A stretch of 64,000 nt of DNA from positions 53,615-117,614 of the IMG/VR virus record IMGVR_UViG_3300024346_000015. One strand, given 5' to 3'. Both the position numbers and the translations under genes were made by a program. The notes beneath the pieces are model-generated. The model did not search any database. It was not told the origin of the DNA and was given only the letters and a program-made list of their open reading frames with translations. This DNA is from a virus. Below are positions 53,474 to 63,023 of the stretch, piece by piece (positions within the stretch are counted from its first letter, which is position 1; each line of letters begins with the position of its first letter).

Positions 53474-53713
53474 TCAAGCCATAGTTTCAATTAAATTTCG
53501 TGCAAGGAAGGTCAGTCCCAGACCATTTACCAGTATCAACGCCCTGTCTTTCCAGAGTATCGATACCCATAACCATCCGATTACACCCACAAACGATAGA
53601 CTCAGGTCATAGATCTGGAGTCCATCAACACCTCTGATTGACATGGCACTGATCATCAATACGGATGCGGCCCACTTTACATACCAATCTAATTCTCTCT
53701 TAGCCCCAGACAT
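53474..53713 (-). CDS. Small multi-TM protein
   Basis: WY.KW.AS; three hydrophobic segments. Confidence 0.65.
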   Translation of the reverse strand: MSGAKRELDWYVKWAASVLMISAMSIRGVDGLQIYDLSLSFVGVIGWLWVSILWKDRALILVNGLGLTFLARNLIETMA

Positions 53714-56417: not shown

Positions 56418-58238
56418 TTATTTTAAGAAAGTGTATATTTCTATGAGTTCTTCTTTACCCTTAACTTTGATGTCCCCAATCTTACGGGATACTGTGTCGG
56501 TCAATTGGTCTTTGGTGTGACTTGAGTAGATGGTCGGGAAGTCTTTGTAGTCCCCTCGTGCAGCCGTTGCTTCCAATCGTGCGGCAAGGTTTACCGCGTC
56601 ACCGATAACTGAATAGTCAAATCTGGACTCAGAACCCATATTACCAACAATACAGTCTCCGGTATTAATGCCAGTACCAACATTGATGTCAGGAAGACCT
56701 CGCTCTTTGTAAGTTTCCTTAAGCTCATCTGTTTTCTCCTCTATTTCTTTGGCAGACTTTACTGCCATGTCTGCGTGGTTCTCACAGGGTACAGGTGCGT
56801 TCCAGAACGCCATGATACAGTCACCCATGTACTTATCGATAGTACCACCGTTGTTTAAGATAATCTGTGTCATCGCATCTAGGAACTCATTGACCAACTC
56901 AACCAATCCTTCGGGATCATCGTTGTTCTTGTAGTGTTCTGAGATCGGAGTGAAGCCACATATATCCATAAATAAGAACGACATCTCCTTACGTTCGCCC
57001 CCTAGTTTCAAAAGTGATGGATCCTTCTGAAGCATATATACCATGTCCGGAGATAAATATGTCCCGAACTGTTTTTTTACTTGCTCTTTCAATTTGTATG
57101 TGGTATAATACTGATTAAAAGACGATTGCCCAAATACAAGGAACCCCGCAATTGAGACCCAAACGATATCCAGCACAAAGTAAGAATTACTCCAGACGAT
57201 CCACGATATTATCGGGACGCTTGAAAGAAACAAAACAGAACTTATCACCCCAACAACTGTGGGAAATCTATAGACCGATACAAGGATTCCTAGACACACT
57301 ACCAAAATCGAAAGCACTTCAACTATTAGACTCCAGTCGGGCCTCTGTATTTGAACACCTGAGAGTACGGTCTGAATTTGATGGCCTTGAACTTCGTGGG
57401 GATACACTGCACCCATTGGGGTTGGTACTGGATTAGCAACTCCCTCTGCGGTCACACCTAAAATTATTATCTTACCTTCGGGGATGGGTTCGAGTATACT
57501 CTGAGACTTAAAGTCGTGCCAGAAGGCAACAGGCAACTCTGAGGACGGCTCTGTGACCAAAGGATCCTGTTTACCCAGTCTTATCCACTCTACACCAAGA
57601 GAATTGTATTTCACGGTGTAGGATGGTTCCCCTATCCACACCCTAACGGCGTCTAACCCAAGAGAGGGGTACGGTTGTCCGTTGATGCCTACCATTAATG
57701 GTGTCCGTCTGAGAACACCTGTAGGTTGATCAACTTCAGCGGATACTGCACCCACCCCCATACTCATCTGTGCGAGTTCCGGAATAGGTATCAGTATACC
57801 ACTGTAGTCGATTAGTGAATCTATAGGTTTACCGAACGTAGATACGTTGGCATATATCCCTAGATCATCCGTAGTAGTTTGGCGTGTAGGTGCGCTGGCC
57901 AGGATTACGGGTTTTAGGGCGATTGATTTTGATAGTTCCAGATCCCCCGCAAACCGATCGGGTTCTGACCATATCATTGTTGATACTATTAGAGAATTGG
58001 GTGGTGCTTGGTTGATATACTTGGCGATTGTCTTTCGCGGCCACGGGTATTGTCCTTCCTTTTCAATTGATGCTTCATCTATGTTTACCAATACAATATC
58101 GTCTATCGAGATAACCTCGTGACTTTGTTGTAGTTGATCGTAGTATGCGTACTGCAACGACTTCACAATGTCGATCTGCGATACTTTTAAAACCGCGAAC
58201 AGAATGATCACGGGGATGACACTATACCACTTTGTCAT
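56418..58238 (-). CDS. Membrane-bound CHASE2-domain class III adenylate cyclase
   Basis: LVNIDE.SI...GQYPWPR (CHASE2), three TMs, FMDICGFT, DKYMGDCIMA, GNMGS..RFDYSVIGD.VNLAARLE. Confidence 0.93.
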   Translation of the reverse strand: MTKWYSVIPVIILFAVLKVSQIDIVKSLQYAYYDQLQQSHEVISIDDIVLVNIDEASIEKEGQYPWPRKTIAKYINQAPPNSLIVSTMIWSEPDRFAGDLELSKSIALKPVILASAPTRQTTTDDLGIYANVSTFGKPIDSLIDYSGILIPIPELAQMSMGVGAVSAEVDQPTGVLRRTPLMVGINGQPYPSLGLDAVRVWIGEPSYTVKYNSLGVEWIRLGKQDPLVTEPSSELPVAFWHDFKSQSILEPIPEGKIIILGVTAEGVANPVPTPMGAVYPHEVQGHQIQTVLSGVQIQRPDWSLIVEVLSILVVCLGILVSVYRFPTVVGVISSVLFLSSVPIISWIVWSNSYFVLDIVWVSIAGFLVFGQSSFNQYYTTYKLKEQVKKQFGTYLSPDMVYMLQKDPSLLKLGGERKEMSFLFMDICGFTPISEHYKNNDDPEGLVELVNEFLDAMTQIILNNGGTIDKYMGDCIMAFWNAPVPCENHADMAVKSAKEIEEKTDELKETYKERGLPDINVGTGINTGDCIVGNMGSESRFDYSVIGDAVNLAARLEATAARGDYKDFPTIYSSHTKDQLTDTVSRKIGDIKVKGKEELIEIYTFLK

Positions 58239-58972
58239 TGTTGTGTTATTGTAACAGAACAACCGCCTACTGTCAAGCAATTTTGCTGTAAAGTATAGGT
58301 TGCGGTTGAATTAAATTGTTTGAGAGTCAAGTCAGTACCATACGTACCGTCAAGAGTTATATTTGCGGTATGGGTTGCGTTGGGCCCTTTCTGACGGATG
58401 AACACATCGTTCTCGTCATTGTAGATATTGAGGTTGATTTCCTTTGCACCATCGTGTTGTTGGATGGTCGTAACCTCGTTGTTGTCTCCAGCTACGTGTA
58501 GATCGACTGCATGACCATCGACACTACCTTGATTGGTCTGTTGAATAGAAACACCGTTGTTGTCTCCGTGAACGGTTAGGTCAACGGTATGTCCACCGCC
58601 TTCCCAGTTATCGTACCAATAGTCATGGTTGGTATAACTCTCTGGATAATCGAATGCACATCCTTGACAGATCTTTACTCCATTACCAGAACCACTCATC
58701 TCATCTGTTGTAATCTTGTTTACAGAAGAAGTGTCTTCGTTGTATTGAATGAATAGAAGTCCACTATAGGTGGTGTTGATAAATGATCCAGTATCTAACA
58801 TATCCACCACATTGTGTGAACCGACTTGTTCTATACCTAAACTGAAATTAGTACCGGATTGATCGATAGTTATTTGATTGTCCGCTGATGCGGTATCGGT
58901 GAAGAAACATATTAGACCAATGAAGAATATGGCCATGATACATGTATCTCTGAATTCGTTGTCGTCTTTCAT
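58235..58972 (-). CDS. Secreted curlin-repeat protein (CsgA/CsgB-like) 2
   Basis: Signal peptide; repeats I.Q.G..N / G.NN.V.I.Q. Confidence 0.7.
   Translation of the reverse strand: MKDDNEFRDTCIMAIFFIGLICFFTDTASADNQITIDQSGTNFSLGIEQVGSHNVVDMLDTGSFINTTYSGLLFIQYNEDTSSVNKITTDEMSGSGNGVKICQGCAFDYPESYTNHDYWYDNWEGGGHTVDLTVHGDNNGVSIQQTNQGSVDGHAVDLHVAGDNNEVTTIQQHDGAKEINLNIYNDENDVFIRQKGPNATHTANITLDGTYGTDLTLKQFNSTATYTLQQNCLTVGGCSVTITQQ
58248..58276 (-). promoter_or_regulatory. sigma70 promoter TTGACA-N17-TACAAT for the cyclase gene
   Basis: Near-consensus, just upstream of ATG 58238. Confidence 0.75.
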
Positions 58973-58973
58973 A

Positions 58974-60119
58974 TCAATTGCTCTGTCTTATTACCACCAA
59001 AATGTCATCACCCCCGTCTGCGGTGATCGTTCCTACGTAACCTTCTACCTCTGTATCTAGTCTTATACTACCTCCGGTTAAAAAGTTCAATGCAATAACA
59101 CCGTTTACGTCACGGTAGAAAACAATACCTTGGTCTTCTTGGAAAACTGCATATTGACTGTCAACGTTCTTACCCCAGACAGCACCCTTCAACCTTATCG
59201 CACCACCACCTCTACCCGATTGCATATCTTCGAGATCACCCATAGTGCGTACTAATGCTTCTACTTCATCTAATAGATCCACCAACAATTCTGAGTCAAG
59301 TGCATCATAGTCTAATCTAGTGTAGACCGGATCTTCAGCGTAATCATCATATGACTTTTCCAGTTCATCGAACTGAAGGAAGTCTGCGTCCAATGAACCC
59401 ATGTCTATATCAGCGTCATCTAACAACTGTTCTTGTATCGCCTCTGCCACTTCATCGGGTGGACTGACAATGAACATGTTATCGATTGACGATGGTGTTA
59501 TATTCTCGATGACCACAACTCTGGTCGGAGGCGAGTCTAAACTAGACACCATTGTCGTTGCATAGGCTTGAGTGAGAGTAGTCTCACCCGCATCATTAGA
59601 AACAACAATCTCACCAGACGGATTACCATATTCGTCCGGTAATAATATAACGAGAGTCCGACCCAACTCATCGATCGTTGTAGTGAAATCCGTTCCACGG
59701 ACAGCAATCTGTGCAGTCGGGGTAGAGATATCGATATTCTTCTTATCTACCATTCCCAATCGACCAGACGCAAATCGAGCAGTCCCAAGTGCCATCTTCA
59801 TGACCATCTTAGACTTACTCGGATCTGGATCGTAATACACCTTATCAATAAAGACTTTGGTGTGTTCGATCAACGACAACTCAGCATCATCCTTGAACTT
59901 AATTAACATCCTTCCCTTTGCAGTTTGGGCTGTATCATTAAGTTCTATGTCAGTGCCTACCACGGACGATATGACATCCGTCTCTCTTAGCAAAGAACCG
60001 ATTCCTTTCGATTCAACTATCCCGCCGATAGATTCTGCATGTACTACCCCAGAACCCATTGACAGTATAACACTAATTATCGTTGGCGTTATCTTTCTGA
60101 TTAATCTGTATGACTGCAT
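58974..60119 (-). CDS. FecR-domain periplasmic protein
   Basis: D...T.....I.F.D.....L.E.T; L.GT.RF.SG; I.TPTA.I.VRGT.F. Confidence 0.85.
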   Translation of the reverse strand: MQSYRLIRKITPTIISVILSMGSGVVHAESIGGIVESKGIGSLLRETDVISSVVGTDIELNDTAQTAKGRMLIKFKDDAELSLIEHTKVFIDKVYYDPDPSKSKMVMKMALGTARFASGRLGMVDKKNIDISTPTAQIAVRGTDFTTTIDELGRTLVILLPDEYGNPSGEIVVSNDAGETTLTQAYATTMVSSLDSPPTRVVVIENITPSSIDNMFIVSPPDEVAEAIQEQLLDDADIDMGSLDADFLQFDELEKSYDDYAEDPVYTRLDYDALDSELLVDLLDEVEALVRTMGDLEDMQSGRGGGAIRLKGAVWGKNVDSQYAVFQEDQGIVFYRDVNGVIALNFLTGGSIRLDTEVEGYVGTITADGGDDILVVIRQSN

Positions 60120-60798
60120 TGTCTGACGTAATATCCATAGTAATGATACCCTTACACGACTGTATTCCGGTTGGACACGTACCACTTAACTGGTTGATGT
60201 CGATATCCGCATTGTCACCGGCAAACTCTACTGTCTGTGTCTGATAGAAACCATCGTTCTGTAATGATACTATGTTATTACCGTCACCAGTAATGTCCCA
60301 GTCCCAAGTTACGTCATCGGTCTCAACGTCAATGTCGAACACATTAGAAGATCCAAGAACCTGTAGATCTAAATCTAAACGTTCAGAAGATGCAGCTGCA
60401 CCTTGATCGAAATCAATTGTGTTAGAGTCGCCCGTCATTGTGATATCCATTGTGGTAGCGTCCGTAGATCCTATATCACCAATGAAATAATCGAGTACGT
60501 TAGCATCACCAGTCCACAGTAAATTGTATGTAGAACTGTTAGATGTCAATGTACCGAACAACAGGTTTTCGTTACCAACTTGATCGATGTTAAATGTTAG
60601 TGAGGAACCTGTGATCGGTGTCGCACTAGAATTTGTCGCGAAGTTGTCTAAACCAATTTTGTTACCGTAACCAATCTGATCGATATAAAGGGTAAGCGTG
60701 TTACCCGATTGATCGATGTTGATCTCGTTGTCGTCAGATGCTGCACCATAACTTAAACTAGAAAACAGTGCAACTAGTCCTATTAAGTACTTATTCAT
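60073..60798 (-). CDS. Secreted curlin-repeat protein (CsgA/CsgB-like) 1
   Basis: Signal peptide MNKYLIGLVALFSSLSYGA; about 8 beta-solenoid repeats (IDQ.G..N, TGD.N). Confidence 0.72.
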   Translation of the reverse strand: MNKYLIGLVALFSSLSYGAASDDNEINIDQSGNTLTLYIDQIGYGNKIGLDNFATNSSATPITGSSLTFNIDQVGNENLLFGTLTSNSSTYNLLWTGDANVLDYFIGDIGSTDATTMDITMTGDSNTIDFDQGAAASSERLDLDLQVLGSSNVFDIDVETDDVTWDWDITGDGNNIVSLQNDGFYQTQTVEFAGDNADIDINQLSGTCPTGIQSCKGIITMDITSDNAVIQINQKDNANDN

Positions 60799-61723
60799 CG
60801 TCTTTACTTTCTCCTATCGGGTGACCTTCGTTTGTCCCATCATGCTGATGGGGATGACGATGTCCTGTCCCTACTTTCCAAAGACCTCTATCATGTCCTT
60901 GGTAGATTAACTCTAGTACGCCCGCTTCTATAGCCGTTCGTACCGCATATGTCACTGATTCATTATTTCCCACTCCGTCTTCATACTCCACCAGCTGTGT
61001 CCCCTGTTCGTAAAATCTAAACAAGTCTCCACCCGCACCATAACTAAGAATCGTCTTTGTACTCTGGACGTTCAACAAAACTTCTCCCGTCAGAACAGAA
61101 ACTGCTCTGATAGAAACCGTCACAATATCTTTACGATACTGCCTAGAGAATCCGATACCTAATGTTCTGGCACCTCGTCCTCCAGTCTGGATATTGGTAT
61201 CATAACCAATAATACCTCCTTCAATAATCATACCAGCAAAGAGCAAAGGCCCAATACTACCAGACTTCTCGTCAGAGTATTCCTTACGGGTTGATCGAAC
61301 GATCTGTCTCTCTCGTACCAGATTATCGATGCCCTGTCTCTCTACTACACGGAACCACTTACCTTGGGATGCCGTCTTGAGAGCGTCTATTAATAACTCG
61401 GTTCCCCCTTGGGATACCGCAGTACTGAAGTCCGCAATTCCATCGCGTGCCTTCCGTTGACCAGTGAGATCCTTAAATCCATATACAGCTACAACTGGCA
61501 TGTTTGTTGCCGGTGGTACGTTTAATAAGTCAACGTATGCCGGCAACTTTACTACTGTAGGTTGATCTACGCAAATATACTTGCGAGACATAACCTTGTC
61601 TAATCCTTTGTCCGTTCCACAATCTTTCGGGTTTTCTGACCATTGTGGTATCTGAGCGCAACCTGTCATAAAAATGACGCTCAACAATAGTAGATGCAAT
61701 TTACGTACCATCACCACCATCAC
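60791..61723 (-). CDS. csgG: Curli secretion channel lipoprotein CsgG
   Basis: Lipobox MTGC; VAVY.F.D.TGQRK; WFRVVER.G..NL..ERQI.R; GGI.GYD.N. Confidence 0.93.
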   Translation of the reverse strand: MMVVMVRKLHLLLLSVIFMTGCAQIPQWSENPKDCGTDKGLDKVMSRKYICVDQPTVVKLPAYVDLLNVPPATNMPVVAVYGFKDLTGQRKARDGIADFSTAVSQGGTELLIDALKTASQGKWFRVVERQGIDNLVRERQIVRSTRKEYSDEKSGSIGPLLFAGMIIEGGIIGYDTNIQTGGRGARTLGIGFSRQYRKDIVTVSIRAVSVLTGEVLLNVQSTKTILSYGAGGDLFRFYEQGTQLVEYEDGVGNNESVTYAVRTAIEAGVLELIYQGHDRGLWKVGTGHRHPHQHDGTNEGHPIGESKDDE

Positions 61724-62210
61724 TCCCGTCTGTACCGAAGTTACCTGTTCCGACAGGTATTTCGATCACGGTCTCAGTTCCATCTGTGTCGATGATAGTC
61801 ATCTTGATGTAATCTTCACCGGCTTCGTTGGTGAGTACCTCATATGACACAACTGATCCCTCAAGGGTAAATGACCCAAAGGTTACTGCATTTTCGTTGC
61901 TGAACATATTGTCCACCAACTGTTTAGATAGTTGTGCATAGATTCTACTCTCTAGGTTACGTATGAACTTGGCTAAGGTTGTATTCTCTGCTTCCCGTTC
62001 TGCGGCCTTTTGTGCCGCCTCTAACGCATCCTCGATAGATTTCTTTCTACTGTGTTCTTGGTTTTCAATGGTGAGATAGTGTGATCCAGTACCCACTCCA
62101 CTAAAGGACGGGTTCTTAAAACCAAATGTTATCTCTGACGTTGCCGCCAATGGCGACATCATTACCAAAACAAGAATACTACTTGTTAGTCTTTTTATCA
62201 TTTCGTTCAA
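61701..62210 (-). CDS. csgF: Curli assembly protein CsgF
   Basis: Signal peptide then E..F.FKNPSF.G; F.RNLESRI...LS..L. Confidence 0.88.
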   Translation of the reverse strand: MNEMIKRLTSSILVLVMMSPLAATSEITFGFKNPSFSGVGTGSHYLTIENQEHSRKKSIEDALEAAQKAAEREAENTTLAKFIRNLESRIYAQLSKQLVDNMFSNENAVTFGSFTLEGSVVSYEVLTNEAGEDYIKMTIIDTDGTETVIEIPVGTGNFGTDGSDGGDGT

Positions 62211-62460
62211 CCATTTCCTGCTGTTGCAGTATCATATCTAATTTAGTACGCAATCTAATCAAGTCATTGTCGAGCATTCGTACTCGATCGATCAACTGGA
62301 TCAGAGTCAAATGCGACTCCTCTATCACTGGATCTACATGGTCAGTAACCCAGTGCCACACATAATAGATGAAGTACCCTAATCCTATACAAGCGATAAT
62401 GGGGAATCCATATGTGTTTATCATGTCTACGATATTTAGTGATTCGATAGGTTCCATCAA
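62179..62460 (-). CDS. Small membrane protein (csg-associated, paralog B)
   Basis: GFPI + TM helix + coiled coil. Confidence 0.7.
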   Translation of the reverse strand: MMEPIESLNIVDMINTYGFPIIACIGLGYFIYYVWHWVTDHVDPVIEESHLTLIQLIDRVRMLDNDLIRLRTKLDMILQQQEMVERNDKKTNK

Positions 62461-62735
62461 TCCTTCCTCGAATCTTTCTGTCCATCGGCCCTAGACAATC
62501 GGTCTAGGTCTGGCCGTAAGTCAAAAGAATGTGATATCAACAAGTCGATACGAACCAACTCATTGTTCATAGTTTTTATTCGGTTTTCCAAACTCAATAC
62601 AAATCCGCGTTGCGTCTTGATATTACTCAAGGCACCGTCCAGTATAAATTTTAAAGTTAGGAATACGAAAAATCCTCCGGCGAGTGCGGAGGCGATAGGG
62701 AATCCAACGTCCATGACGCTTAGAAATAAATCCAT
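62457..62735 (-). CDS. Small membrane protein (csg-associated, paralog A)
   Basis: GFPI + TM helix + coiled coil. Confidence 0.7.
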   Translation of the reverse strand: MDLFLSVMDVGFPIASALAGGFFVFLTLKFILDGALSNIKTQRGFVLSLENRIKTMNNELVRIDLLISHSFDLRPDLDRLSRADGQKDSRKD

Positions 62736-62767
62736 CGTAATACCTTCAAATCAAAAGACTGTGAAAG

Positions 62768-62775
62768 TATTTATA
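62768..62775 (-). promoter_or_regulatory. Late promoter TATAAATA heading the curli cluster
   Basis: Exact consensus 32 nt upstream of the first gene; GAAGG RBS in the leader. Confidence 0.78.
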
Positions 62776-62783
62776 CGTCTAGA

Positions 62784-63023
62784 CTATTTGATCTCGCCCT
62801 TTTCTATCAAATCGGTAAATATGTCCCACATTTTCTGGAACTTTAGTTCATACATCTTCTTTATACCGAAGTATTGGTTCATAAGTTCGTCTTGATACTC
62901 TGCATCGCCACACTTATTCTGCCACTTGGGGTCGTCTACGAAGTGACACGTAGCTTCGTCTATATCATCTAGTATTAACCAACATCGCATCATTGCATTC
63001 TCTAAATCAAATCTATCACTCAT
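62784..63023 (-). CDS. Hypothetical protein
   Basis: RFDLE..M..CW.I.DD; G....Y..KF..W. Confidence 0.65.
   Translation of the reverse strand: MSDRFDLENAMMRCWLILDDIDEATCHFVDDPKWQNKCGDAEYQDELMNQYFGIKKMYELKFQKMWDIFTDLIEKGEIK

Follow-up and report, generated by a model that had tools for sequence, protein, structure and literature searches.

Why would a marine phage carry the genes of a curli secretion pore together with a FecR-domain protein and a CHASE2 adenylate cyclase? The question is raised by a stretch of 64,000 nucleotides (nt), called the window in the following, which covers positions 53,615 to 117,614 of the 122-kb IMG/VR virus record IMGVR_UViG_3300024346_000015 (about 74% complete). 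At 56418-62775, on the minus strand of the window, eight tightly packed genes overlap or abut each other (overlaps of 4-47 nt) in the order small membrane protein 1, small membrane protein 2, CsgF, CsgG, curlin-repeat protein 1, FecR-domain protein, curlin-repeat protein 2 and CHASE2 cyclase (Table 1). A preliminary description, made from the sequence alone, had placed a phage-encoded curli module here. All eight genes that it listed are present, and Pfam CsgF, CsgG, FecR, CHASE2 and Guanylate_cyc match above their cut-offs. We consider it rather probable that the cassette is a curli-like type VIII secretion system (T8SS) of marine T4-like myophages, with a FecR/CHASE2 sensor that produces cyclic AMP (cAMP) and is coupled to the pore or to the fibre. 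This reading is built on the gene identities and topologies, the intact catalytic residues of the cyclase, an invariant gene order, purifying selection, a late promoter box and the composite origin of the cassette.

According to our model, the cassette would be transcribed late in infection as a single unit, and the CsgG lipoprotein pore with its CsgF cap would be placed in the host outer membrane. Two Sec-dependent curlin-repeat proteins, both putative beta-solenoids, would be exported via CsgG; one of them is conserved, and the other one is variable and in some phages fused to an adhesin-type domain. A sensor pair of probable alphaproteobacterial origin, consisting of a FecR-fold protein in the periplasm and a CHASE2 adenylate cyclase in the inner membrane, would have been spliced into this unit. 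The FecR-fold protein would link the outer-membrane apparatus to CHASE2, and the state of the envelope, the pore, the fibre or secretion would be translated into cAMP in the infected cell.

The anatomy of the cassette, its gene order and its proposed roles were already published and annotated in 2022 for phages of SAR11 and OM43. The full set was described in pelagiphage podo- and myoviruses as histidine kinase, CsgF, CsgG, CsgA/B, FecR, a second CsgA/B and adenylate cyclase; the module was ubiquitous in GOV2.0, transcripts were reported, bacterial T8SS operons lacked it, and aggregation and superinfection protection were proposed (Wittmers et al., 2022; PMC9599517). CHASE2 is not mentioned in that paper. 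A curli cluster and the idea of "sibling capture" were presented earlier (Zaragoza-Solas et al., 2020; PMC7029224). The functions suggested in the preliminary description, namely an amyloid coat, aggregation, superinfection protection and a cAMP report on the state of the surface, are hypotheses that these two papers had already put forward (PMC9599517, PMC7029224). In phage HTVC008M, gp011-gp019 are annotated as CsgF, CsgG, curlin-associated protein, two hypothetical proteins and adenylate/guanylyl cyclase, and genes 97-104 in the GenBank record of phage Melnitz are annotated as CsgF, CsgG, curlin repeat protein, FecR domain protein, curlin repeat protein and cyclase. The novelty implied by the preliminary description is therefore not supported; its statement that csgF and csgG occur in marine T4-like phages agrees with HTVC008M, Melnitz and 32 IMG/VR loci. 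We add the CHASE2 domain on the cyclase, the distinction of the FecR protein from iron and anti-sigma regulators and of the upstream genes from kinases, the composition from two bacterial units, the bacterial Slam-like/FecR/CHASE2 triads and a concrete coupling model.

Secretion pore and curlin-repeat proteins

The CsgG homologue matches the structures of E. coli CsgG over residues 55-285 (E 9e-48). The lipobox that had been noted for this protein is there as a variant: the N-terminal hydrophobic stretch ends in F-M-T-G-C with Met at position -3 and the cysteine as Cys22. In CsgF, the N-terminal motif T-F-x-F-x-N-P-x-F-x-G aligns with the segment of E. coli CsgF that is resolved in the CsgG-CsgF complex (6l7a). 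The CsgG lipoprotein pore, the pore-binding motif of CsgF and the Q/N-rich curlin-repeat proteins with signal peptides are features that the phage cassette has in common with the bacterial curli/T8SS (E. coli csgBAC-csgDEFG), and the order csgF-csgG is found in alphaproteobacterial csgF-csgG-curlin loci as well. In contrast to the bacterial systems, the phage repeats are highly diverged and come with a C-terminal Cys pair, the constriction of the pore is altered, and a FecR protein, a CHASE2 cyclase and two small membrane proteins are added, none of which occurs in the bacterial curli loci examined. A further difference concerns the accessory genes. The preliminary description had seen no csgC, csgD or csgE; for CsgC and CsgE this is true of the 122-kb record (about 74% complete), in which neither had a match, and CsgD, like CsgH, was not searched for. 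CsgE and CsgC are dispensable or absent in many bacterial lineages.

The two repeat proteins were assigned through their families. A profile of ten curlin 2 sequences matches the solved curlin 8c50 (E 3e-11) and E. coli CsgA 8enq (E 3.5e-4), and the curlin 2 orthologues of HTVC008M (33.1 bits) and Melnitz (21.8 bits) pass the cut-off of Pfam Curlin_rpt. Curlin 1 aligns with the curlin 2 family in hhalign (99.4% probability, E 5.7e-21); the profile of the curlin 1 family by itself matched no solved curlin. The AlphaFold model of curlin 1 (pLDDT 80, pTM 0.74) is all-beta and a putative solenoid, for which VIA-align returned SufD-type beta-helices (Z 17) and the CsgA of Pontibacter korlensis, 8c50 (Z 16.5, 19% identity, rmsd 9.1). 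The assignment of curlin 1 comes only from VIA-align and from the link through curlin 2. At the family level, both repeat proteins can be placed among the secreted-type curlin-repeat subunits by their sequences.

Within the module, curlin 2 varies most, with 27-38% identity to its relatives and higher values for the neighbouring genes. In HTVC008M, the orthologous gp018 (L001:10689-12014) has an additional N-terminal part of about 200 amino acids (aa) that matches PA14 (27.7 bits, cut-off 24). That an adhesin-type domain of this kind is joined to the variable curlin speaks for exposure at the surface and a role in binding. Both repeat proteins have a Cys pair close to the C-terminus, which reads G-T-C...S-C-K-G in curlin 1 (60073-60200) in most lineages and Q-N-C-x-T-V-G-G-C in curlin 2 (58235-58290), where it is invariant. 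E. coli CsgA is not known to have such a pair. The conserved cysteines suggest that the last turn may be locked by a disulfide in both proteins.

The CHASE2 cyclase and the FecR-domain protein

The last gene of the cassette encodes a membrane-bound class III cyclase. Pfam CHASE2 matches residues 27-331 with 107.1 bits (cut-off 26.3, E 1.5e-30) and Guanylate_cyc matches with 64.6 bits (cut-off 21.9, E 1.2e-17); hydropathy peaks lie at about residues 18-40 and 314-386. The start was refined to the ATG at 58238, within an open reading frame (ORF) of 620 aa at 56418-58280. It overlaps the stop codon of curlin 2 in an ATGA, which is aligned in six of eight relatives. The closest matches are CyaB of P. 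aeruginosa (3r5g, E 3.7e-30) and photoactivated cyclases. All six catalytic residues are kept (numbering of the 620-aa ORF): D439, K483, D487, S557, N564 and R568. They represent the two metal-binding Asp residues, the pair that sets specificity in class IIIb adenylate cyclases (Lys and Ser), and the residues that act on the transition state (Asn and Arg). Among 22 phage homologues, four of these positions are invariant and the other two vary in one homologue each.

The FecR-domain protein, whose start was refined to the ATG at 60119 (ORF 58974-60185) in agreement with public gene calls, opens with a hydrophobic helix that spans residues 3-20 of its 381 aa; from residue 32 onwards, the FecR domain follows. 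In the predicted model, a signal/anchor helix is followed by a confident beta-sandwich (residues 32-191), an acidic linker of low confidence and a small C-terminal beta domain of six strands. The beta-sandwich resembles the C-terminal cell-surface signalling domain of PupR (6ovk; Foldseek E 3.4e-4, probability 1.0), and a periplasmic beta-sandwich of the FecR type is what the phage protein shares with the FecI-FecR-FecA and PupI-PupR-PupB systems.

Annotation as a FecR-type iron or anti-sigma regulator was considered and rejected. Unlike FecR and PupR, the phage protein has no cytoplasmic anti-sigma domain ahead of the transmembrane helix, because it starts directly at the signal/anchor helix. 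The record contains no TonB_dep_Rec match that would indicate a TonB-dependent transducer, and its single Sigma70_r2 match is below threshold (10.4 bits) and lies elsewhere, so that no sigma factor of the extracytoplasmic function (ECF) type was found. Since anti-sigma domain, ECF sigma factor and transducer are all missing, the FecR protein is, judged from its sequence and that of the record, not an iron or anti-sigma regulator.

The phage FecR proteins have in common a C-terminal extension (58974-59200 in the window) that their bacterial relatives lack. It is made up of the acidic linker and the six-strand domain, which ends in I/V-x-I-x-Q-x-N, the same motif as in the curlin repeats. An Atlas search with this domain gave no usable match; a weak Foldseek match of the region to the cell-surface anchoring domain 5ix9 (E 0.036) was not used for assignment.

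Table 1. Cassette genes and late promoter in the order of transcription (coordinates of the window)
Feature	Position	Strand	Properties
T4-type late promoter box TATAAATA	62768..62775	-	33 nt upstream of the first module gene
Small membrane protein 1 (92 aa)	62457..62735	-	N-terminal transmembrane helix, then coiled-coil-like helix; phrog_18771, E 2.3e-25
Small membrane protein 2 (93 aa), paralogue of protein 1	62179..62460	-	phrog_18771, E 6.9e-30; aligns with protein 1
CsgF homologue (169 aa), signal peptide	61701..62210	-	Pfam CsgF 60.9 bits (cut-off 25.8), E 1.8e-16
CsgG homologue (310 aa), outer-membrane lipoprotein pore	60791..61723	-	Pfam CsgG 173.3 bits (cut-off 20.8), E 5.7e-51
Curlin-repeat protein 1 (241 aa), signal peptide, predicted beta-solenoid	60073..60798	-	six I/V-x-I/V-x-Q motifs; hhalign to curlin 2
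FecR-domain periplasmic protein (381 aa)	58974..60119	-	Pfam FecR 32.7 bits (cut-off 24), E 1e-7
Curlin-repeat protein 2 (245 aa), signal peptide	58235..58972	-	family profile matches solved curlins
CHASE2 class III adenylate cyclase (606 aa)	56418..58238	-	transmembrane segment, CHASE2, three transmembrane segments, catalytic domain

Bacterial relatives and the composite origin of the cassette

The FecR alignment was scanned against 185,579 species genomes, which yielded 73 genuine bacterial loci (L044-L116); a neighbourhood of about 10 kb was analyzed for each. The loci come mostly from Alphaproteobacteria, and the similarity is confined to the FecR domain. None of the 73 contained CsgG or CsgF, and CsgG was missing from the entire genome in four of five genomes with FecR-like loci. 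A full-length CHASE2 cyclase is encoded in 19 of the 73 loci, often directly adjacent to the FecR gene. More frequent is a gene of about 450 aa for a protein with a signal peptide, TPR repeats and a Slam-like outer-membrane barrel (SlipAM/DUF2860, above the Pfam cut-offs in several members; Atlas 0.99), which was found in 58 of 73 loci, mostly directly upstream and on the same strand.

The reverse search started from the pore. Seven of 401 sampled alphaproteobacterial genomes encode a CsgG that is 44-51% identical to the phage protein and has csgF-csgG and curlin-like neighbours; within about 9 kb, these seven loci contain neither FecR nor a cyclase nor the small proteins. Since the bacterial FecR loci lack CsgG and CsgF and the bacterial CsgG loci lack FecR and cyclase, the phage cassette is, on the basis of sequence and neighbourhood, put together from two units of bacteria, one a T8SS and the other a FecR/CHASE2-cyclase pair.

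Among bacteria, the nearest relatives of the phage FecR protein and cyclase belong to units of the barrel/FecR/CHASE2 type. As in the phage, a secreted FecR-fold protein is encoded there beside a CHASE2 sensor with a class III cyclase as output. The bacterial units differ in that the TPR and Slam-like barrel gene lies upstream and no T8SS is present, whereas the phage has CsgG and the curlins; in addition, the acidic linker and the C-terminal beta domain are extra parts of the phage FecR protein. By analogy, CsgG and the curlins most likely hold the place of the bacterial Slam-like barrel. The arrangement of a Slam-like barrel followed by FecR recurs in Alphaproteobacteria (e.g., L091:8626-13262), and 16 of the 58 loci with the barrel have a CHASE2 cyclase within about 10 kb. 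Where no cyclase is encoded, many of the bacterial FecR ORFs are very long (800-1000 aa).

Pairs of this kind were noted before: cyaD1 of S. meliloti lies beside the FecR-domain gene smc02177, and in a biofilm operon of Burkholderia a LysM-FecR gene lies beside a CHASE2 kinase (PMC5192318, PMC5498481). Moreover, CHASE2 cyclases of S. meliloti are activated by an external protein signal via an outer-membrane barrel protein (PMC13001267, PMC7529298). NsrA of S. meliloti was rejected as a homologue of the Slam-like neighbour (it has about 1200 aa with its barrel at 600-1200) and serves as an analogy only. The preliminary description had regarded CHASE2 cyclases with FecR-domain partners as established trans-envelope signalling units of proteobacteria. 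As a gene neighbourhood the pairing holds, in the published examples and in the 19 loci found here; as a unit that signals across the envelope, the pair is putative.

These neighbourhoods lead to a more specific proposal. Between an outer-membrane translocon and the CHASE2 sensor of the inner membrane, the FecR-fold protein may serve as a general adaptor in the periplasm, the translocon being a Slam-like barrel in Alphaproteobacteria and CsgG/CsgF in the phages. The C-terminal domain of the phage FecR protein might then read curlin traffic or fibre nucleation and set the cAMP level. We put this forward tentatively, by analogy, and rate it as doubtful.

Conservation, selection and promoters

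To follow the module through the viruses, viral contigs were scanned with the FecR protein, and 32 IMG/VR loci were obtained. The same eight-gene order, as far as the contig reaches, was present in all 32, in HTVC008M, in Melnitz and in seven phage-like contigs binned into metagenome-assembled genomes (MAGs), and it persists among phages that share no more than 27-50% protein identity. In a public protein database, the FecR protein has 3848 homologues. Identity is 69-100% for the best 120 of them, which lie on contigs of at most about 148 kb. In comparison with the closest relative (L005), dN/dS is 0.01-0.19 (also given as 0.013-0.17) for all eight genes, and all eight are under purifying selection.

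These data bear on whether the cassette has a function at all. It might be a host-derived passenger that plays no role in infection. The module does lie in a hypervariable region, and phage C48C1 has neither a CsgG match nor any module gene at the homologue of the flanking gene, as a passenger would allow. However, the gene order has outlasted strong protein divergence, dN/dS is far below 1 for every gene, the catalytic residues of the cyclase are intact, homologues number 3848 in metagenomes, and transcripts were reported (PMC9599517). Conservation and selection contradict the passenger explanation, which we consider highly improbable. The earlier suggestion that the locus is more than an orphan pore is supported, since the unit, which is conserved and under purifying selection, comprises substrate-like subunits and a signalling output.

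Upstream of the module lies the late promoter box (Table 1). Its motif occurs 16 times in the window, where 3.1 copies are expected, and this box is the single copy inside 56418-62800. In 24 of 34 related viral loci, a copy is present at most 120 nt upstream of the first small gene. A second promoter candidate was detected within the cassette: at 58248-58276 on the minus strand, inside the 3' end of curlin 2 and just before the cyclase start, there is a sigma70-like promoter with 11 of 12 matching positions and an extended -10 TG. The hexamers are confined to the window and the two relatives closest to it, and they lie inside conserved coding sequence. Separate timing of the cyclase by this promoter was therefore rejected as a feature of the family.

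The internal promoter would fit the possibility that the fibres are real and that the cyclase/FecR pair is independent of them, acting as a host-takeover device that floods the cell with cAMP when it receives a cue from outside or from the envelope, and having no more than the late operon in common with the fibres. The bacterial pair does occur without a T8SS, as described above (0 of 73 loci; four of five genomes without CsgG), and in podoviruses, copies of the module were reported to be often devoid of cyclase and second curlin (Wittmers et al., 2022; PMC9599517). Several points speak against such independence: in every locus the FecR gene is flanked by the two curlin genes, translation of the cyclase is coupled at its start to curlin 2, conservation of the internal promoter does not extend past the closest relatives, and the phage-specific extension of FecR ends in the curlin-like I-x-Q-x-N. 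An independent device therefore seems improbable to us, and we continue to favour a sensor that is coupled to the secretion unit.

Small membrane proteins upstream of CsgF

The first two genes of the cassette occupy the position at which a histidine kinase was placed in the published module (PMC9599517). Their products belong to phrog_18771, a family of unknown function, and Pfam has no match for either of them. Small protein 1 has a transmembrane segment at about residues 10-33 according to hydropathy, and the profile matches of both proteins in the PDB are generic coiled coils only. The Atlas neighbours of small protein 2 are all viral hypothetical proteins; YvrJ appeared as a weak lead (Atlas 0.86) and was rejected as a relative. 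The label of a histidine kinase was rejected as well. The proteins are only 92-93 aa long, an alignment of 18 small-protein sequences contains no invariant His that could serve as the H-box, and HATPase_c is missing. By these sequence features the small proteins are not kinases.

Phage context

The phage origin of the module, claimed in the preliminary description, is confirmed: the source is a virus record, its PHROG families include tape measure, ribonucleotide reductase, carbamoyltransferase and other phage families, and its relatives are Kyanoviridae-type, marine T4-like myophages. The closest relative overall is phage C48C1 (reductase 79% identical), followed by the Methylophilales phage Melnitz and the Pelagibacter phage HTVC008M. 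In C48C1, no CsgG match was found, and none of the eight module genes lies beside its homologue of the downstream flanking gene. This flanking gene itself is kept in C48C1 (L003, 70687-88958; phrog_1221, 66% identity), with small hypothetical genes in place of the module. The module thus forms a cassette within a variable region, and the site is a point of insertion or deletion.

With the pelagiphage module of HTVC008M and Melnitz (Wittmers et al., 2022) the cassette shares the same eight genes in the same order, on one strand and between replication and structural genes. It differs from it in that the lineage of the window has a GC content of about 40-42%, that protein identities to HTVC008M and Melnitz are only 26-58%, and that C48C1 lacks a CsgG match. 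It also differs in the labels given to the genes (PMC9599517): the upstream genes are not a histidine kinase, and FecR is not an iron/anti-sigma regulator. For the host assignment we searched the window for tRNA genes and found none. Contigs with the whole phage module (L037-L043) were binned in MAGs of Sphingobacteriales, Synechococcus, Planctomycetaceae, Saprospirales and Flavobacteriaceae. They look like phage contigs mis-binned into bacterial genomes and were not taken as evidence for a host.

Curli fibres or a repurposed pore

Several observations weigh against a working curli-like unit that is coupled to a cAMP sensor. The two repeat proteins of the window reach 18.1 and 14.2 bits with Pfam Curlin_rpt and stay below the cut-off of 20.7, and Foldseek found no significant solved match in the PDB for the curlin 1 model. 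In E. coli CsgG, the constriction is formed by Tyr, Asn and Phe; when the phage protein is aligned with 3x2r, Phe is retained, Asp stands in place of Asn, and the Tyr position is not conserved. The 122-kb record encodes no cyclic nucleotide (cNMP)-binding protein that could read the cAMP. Cells infected with Melnitz showed no clumping (Buchholz et al., 2022; PMC9004378). GC content is 42% in the window compared to 35% in the HTVC008M locus (18 kb fetched) and 37% in the Melnitz locus, and the label "pelagiphage" would be tentative for this contig. From the sequences we infer that the curlins would be secreted and polymerise, that cAMP would be synthesised and act on a target, and that the phage would benefit by aggregation, surface masking or lysis timing. 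The coupling of FecR to the pore is drawn by analogy from gene neighbourhoods, and its physical coupling to CHASE2 is likewise inferred.

Some of these points would fit a different use of the pore. CsgG and CsgF may have been put to new use as a gated outer-membrane pore, comparable to a pinholin or a secretin, for lysis timing or the passage of small molecules; the repeat proteins would then not be secreted fibre subunits, and cyclase and FecR would regulate gating. A lysis-timing pore was proposed for Melnitz on the basis of structural modelling and gene synteny, in the same study that saw no clumping (PMC9004378). The position of the module behind a late promoter, the missing CsgE gate in the record, the differences to the constriction of E. 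coli CsgG and the two small transmembrane/coiled-coil proteins, which are holin- or spanin-like in size and layout, also agree with this proposal. Nevertheless, every complete locus encodes two curlin-repeat proteins with signal peptides that are under purifying selection, curlin 2 of HTVC008M is fused to the PA14 domain, and the CsgF motif that aligns with the E. coli complex is conserved. These features argue against a repurposed pore, since a pore alone needs neither curlins nor a PA14 fusion nor the CsgF motif. We regard this use of the pore as unlikely, and a curli-like secretion unit with a coupled sensor remains the reading that we prefer.

Biological meaning

Phages of the most abundant bacteria of the ocean spend about 6 kb on a secretion system and a second-messenger sensor, and the cultured hosts SAR11 and OM43 were reported to lack such a secretion system. 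The annotation of the locus as an "iron regulator plus kinase" is replaced by a model that can be tested, with a CHASE2 cyclase, a FecR protein as putative adaptor, no histidine kinase and a composition from two units. Should the adaptor proposal be true, this would be the first case of a virus that carries a second-messenger circuit coupled to secretion, and the widespread Slam-like/FecR/CHASE2 triads of bacteria would be given a function. Provided that fibres and cAMP signal both exist, infection would alter the cell surface, aggregation and perhaps the particle flux in the sea.

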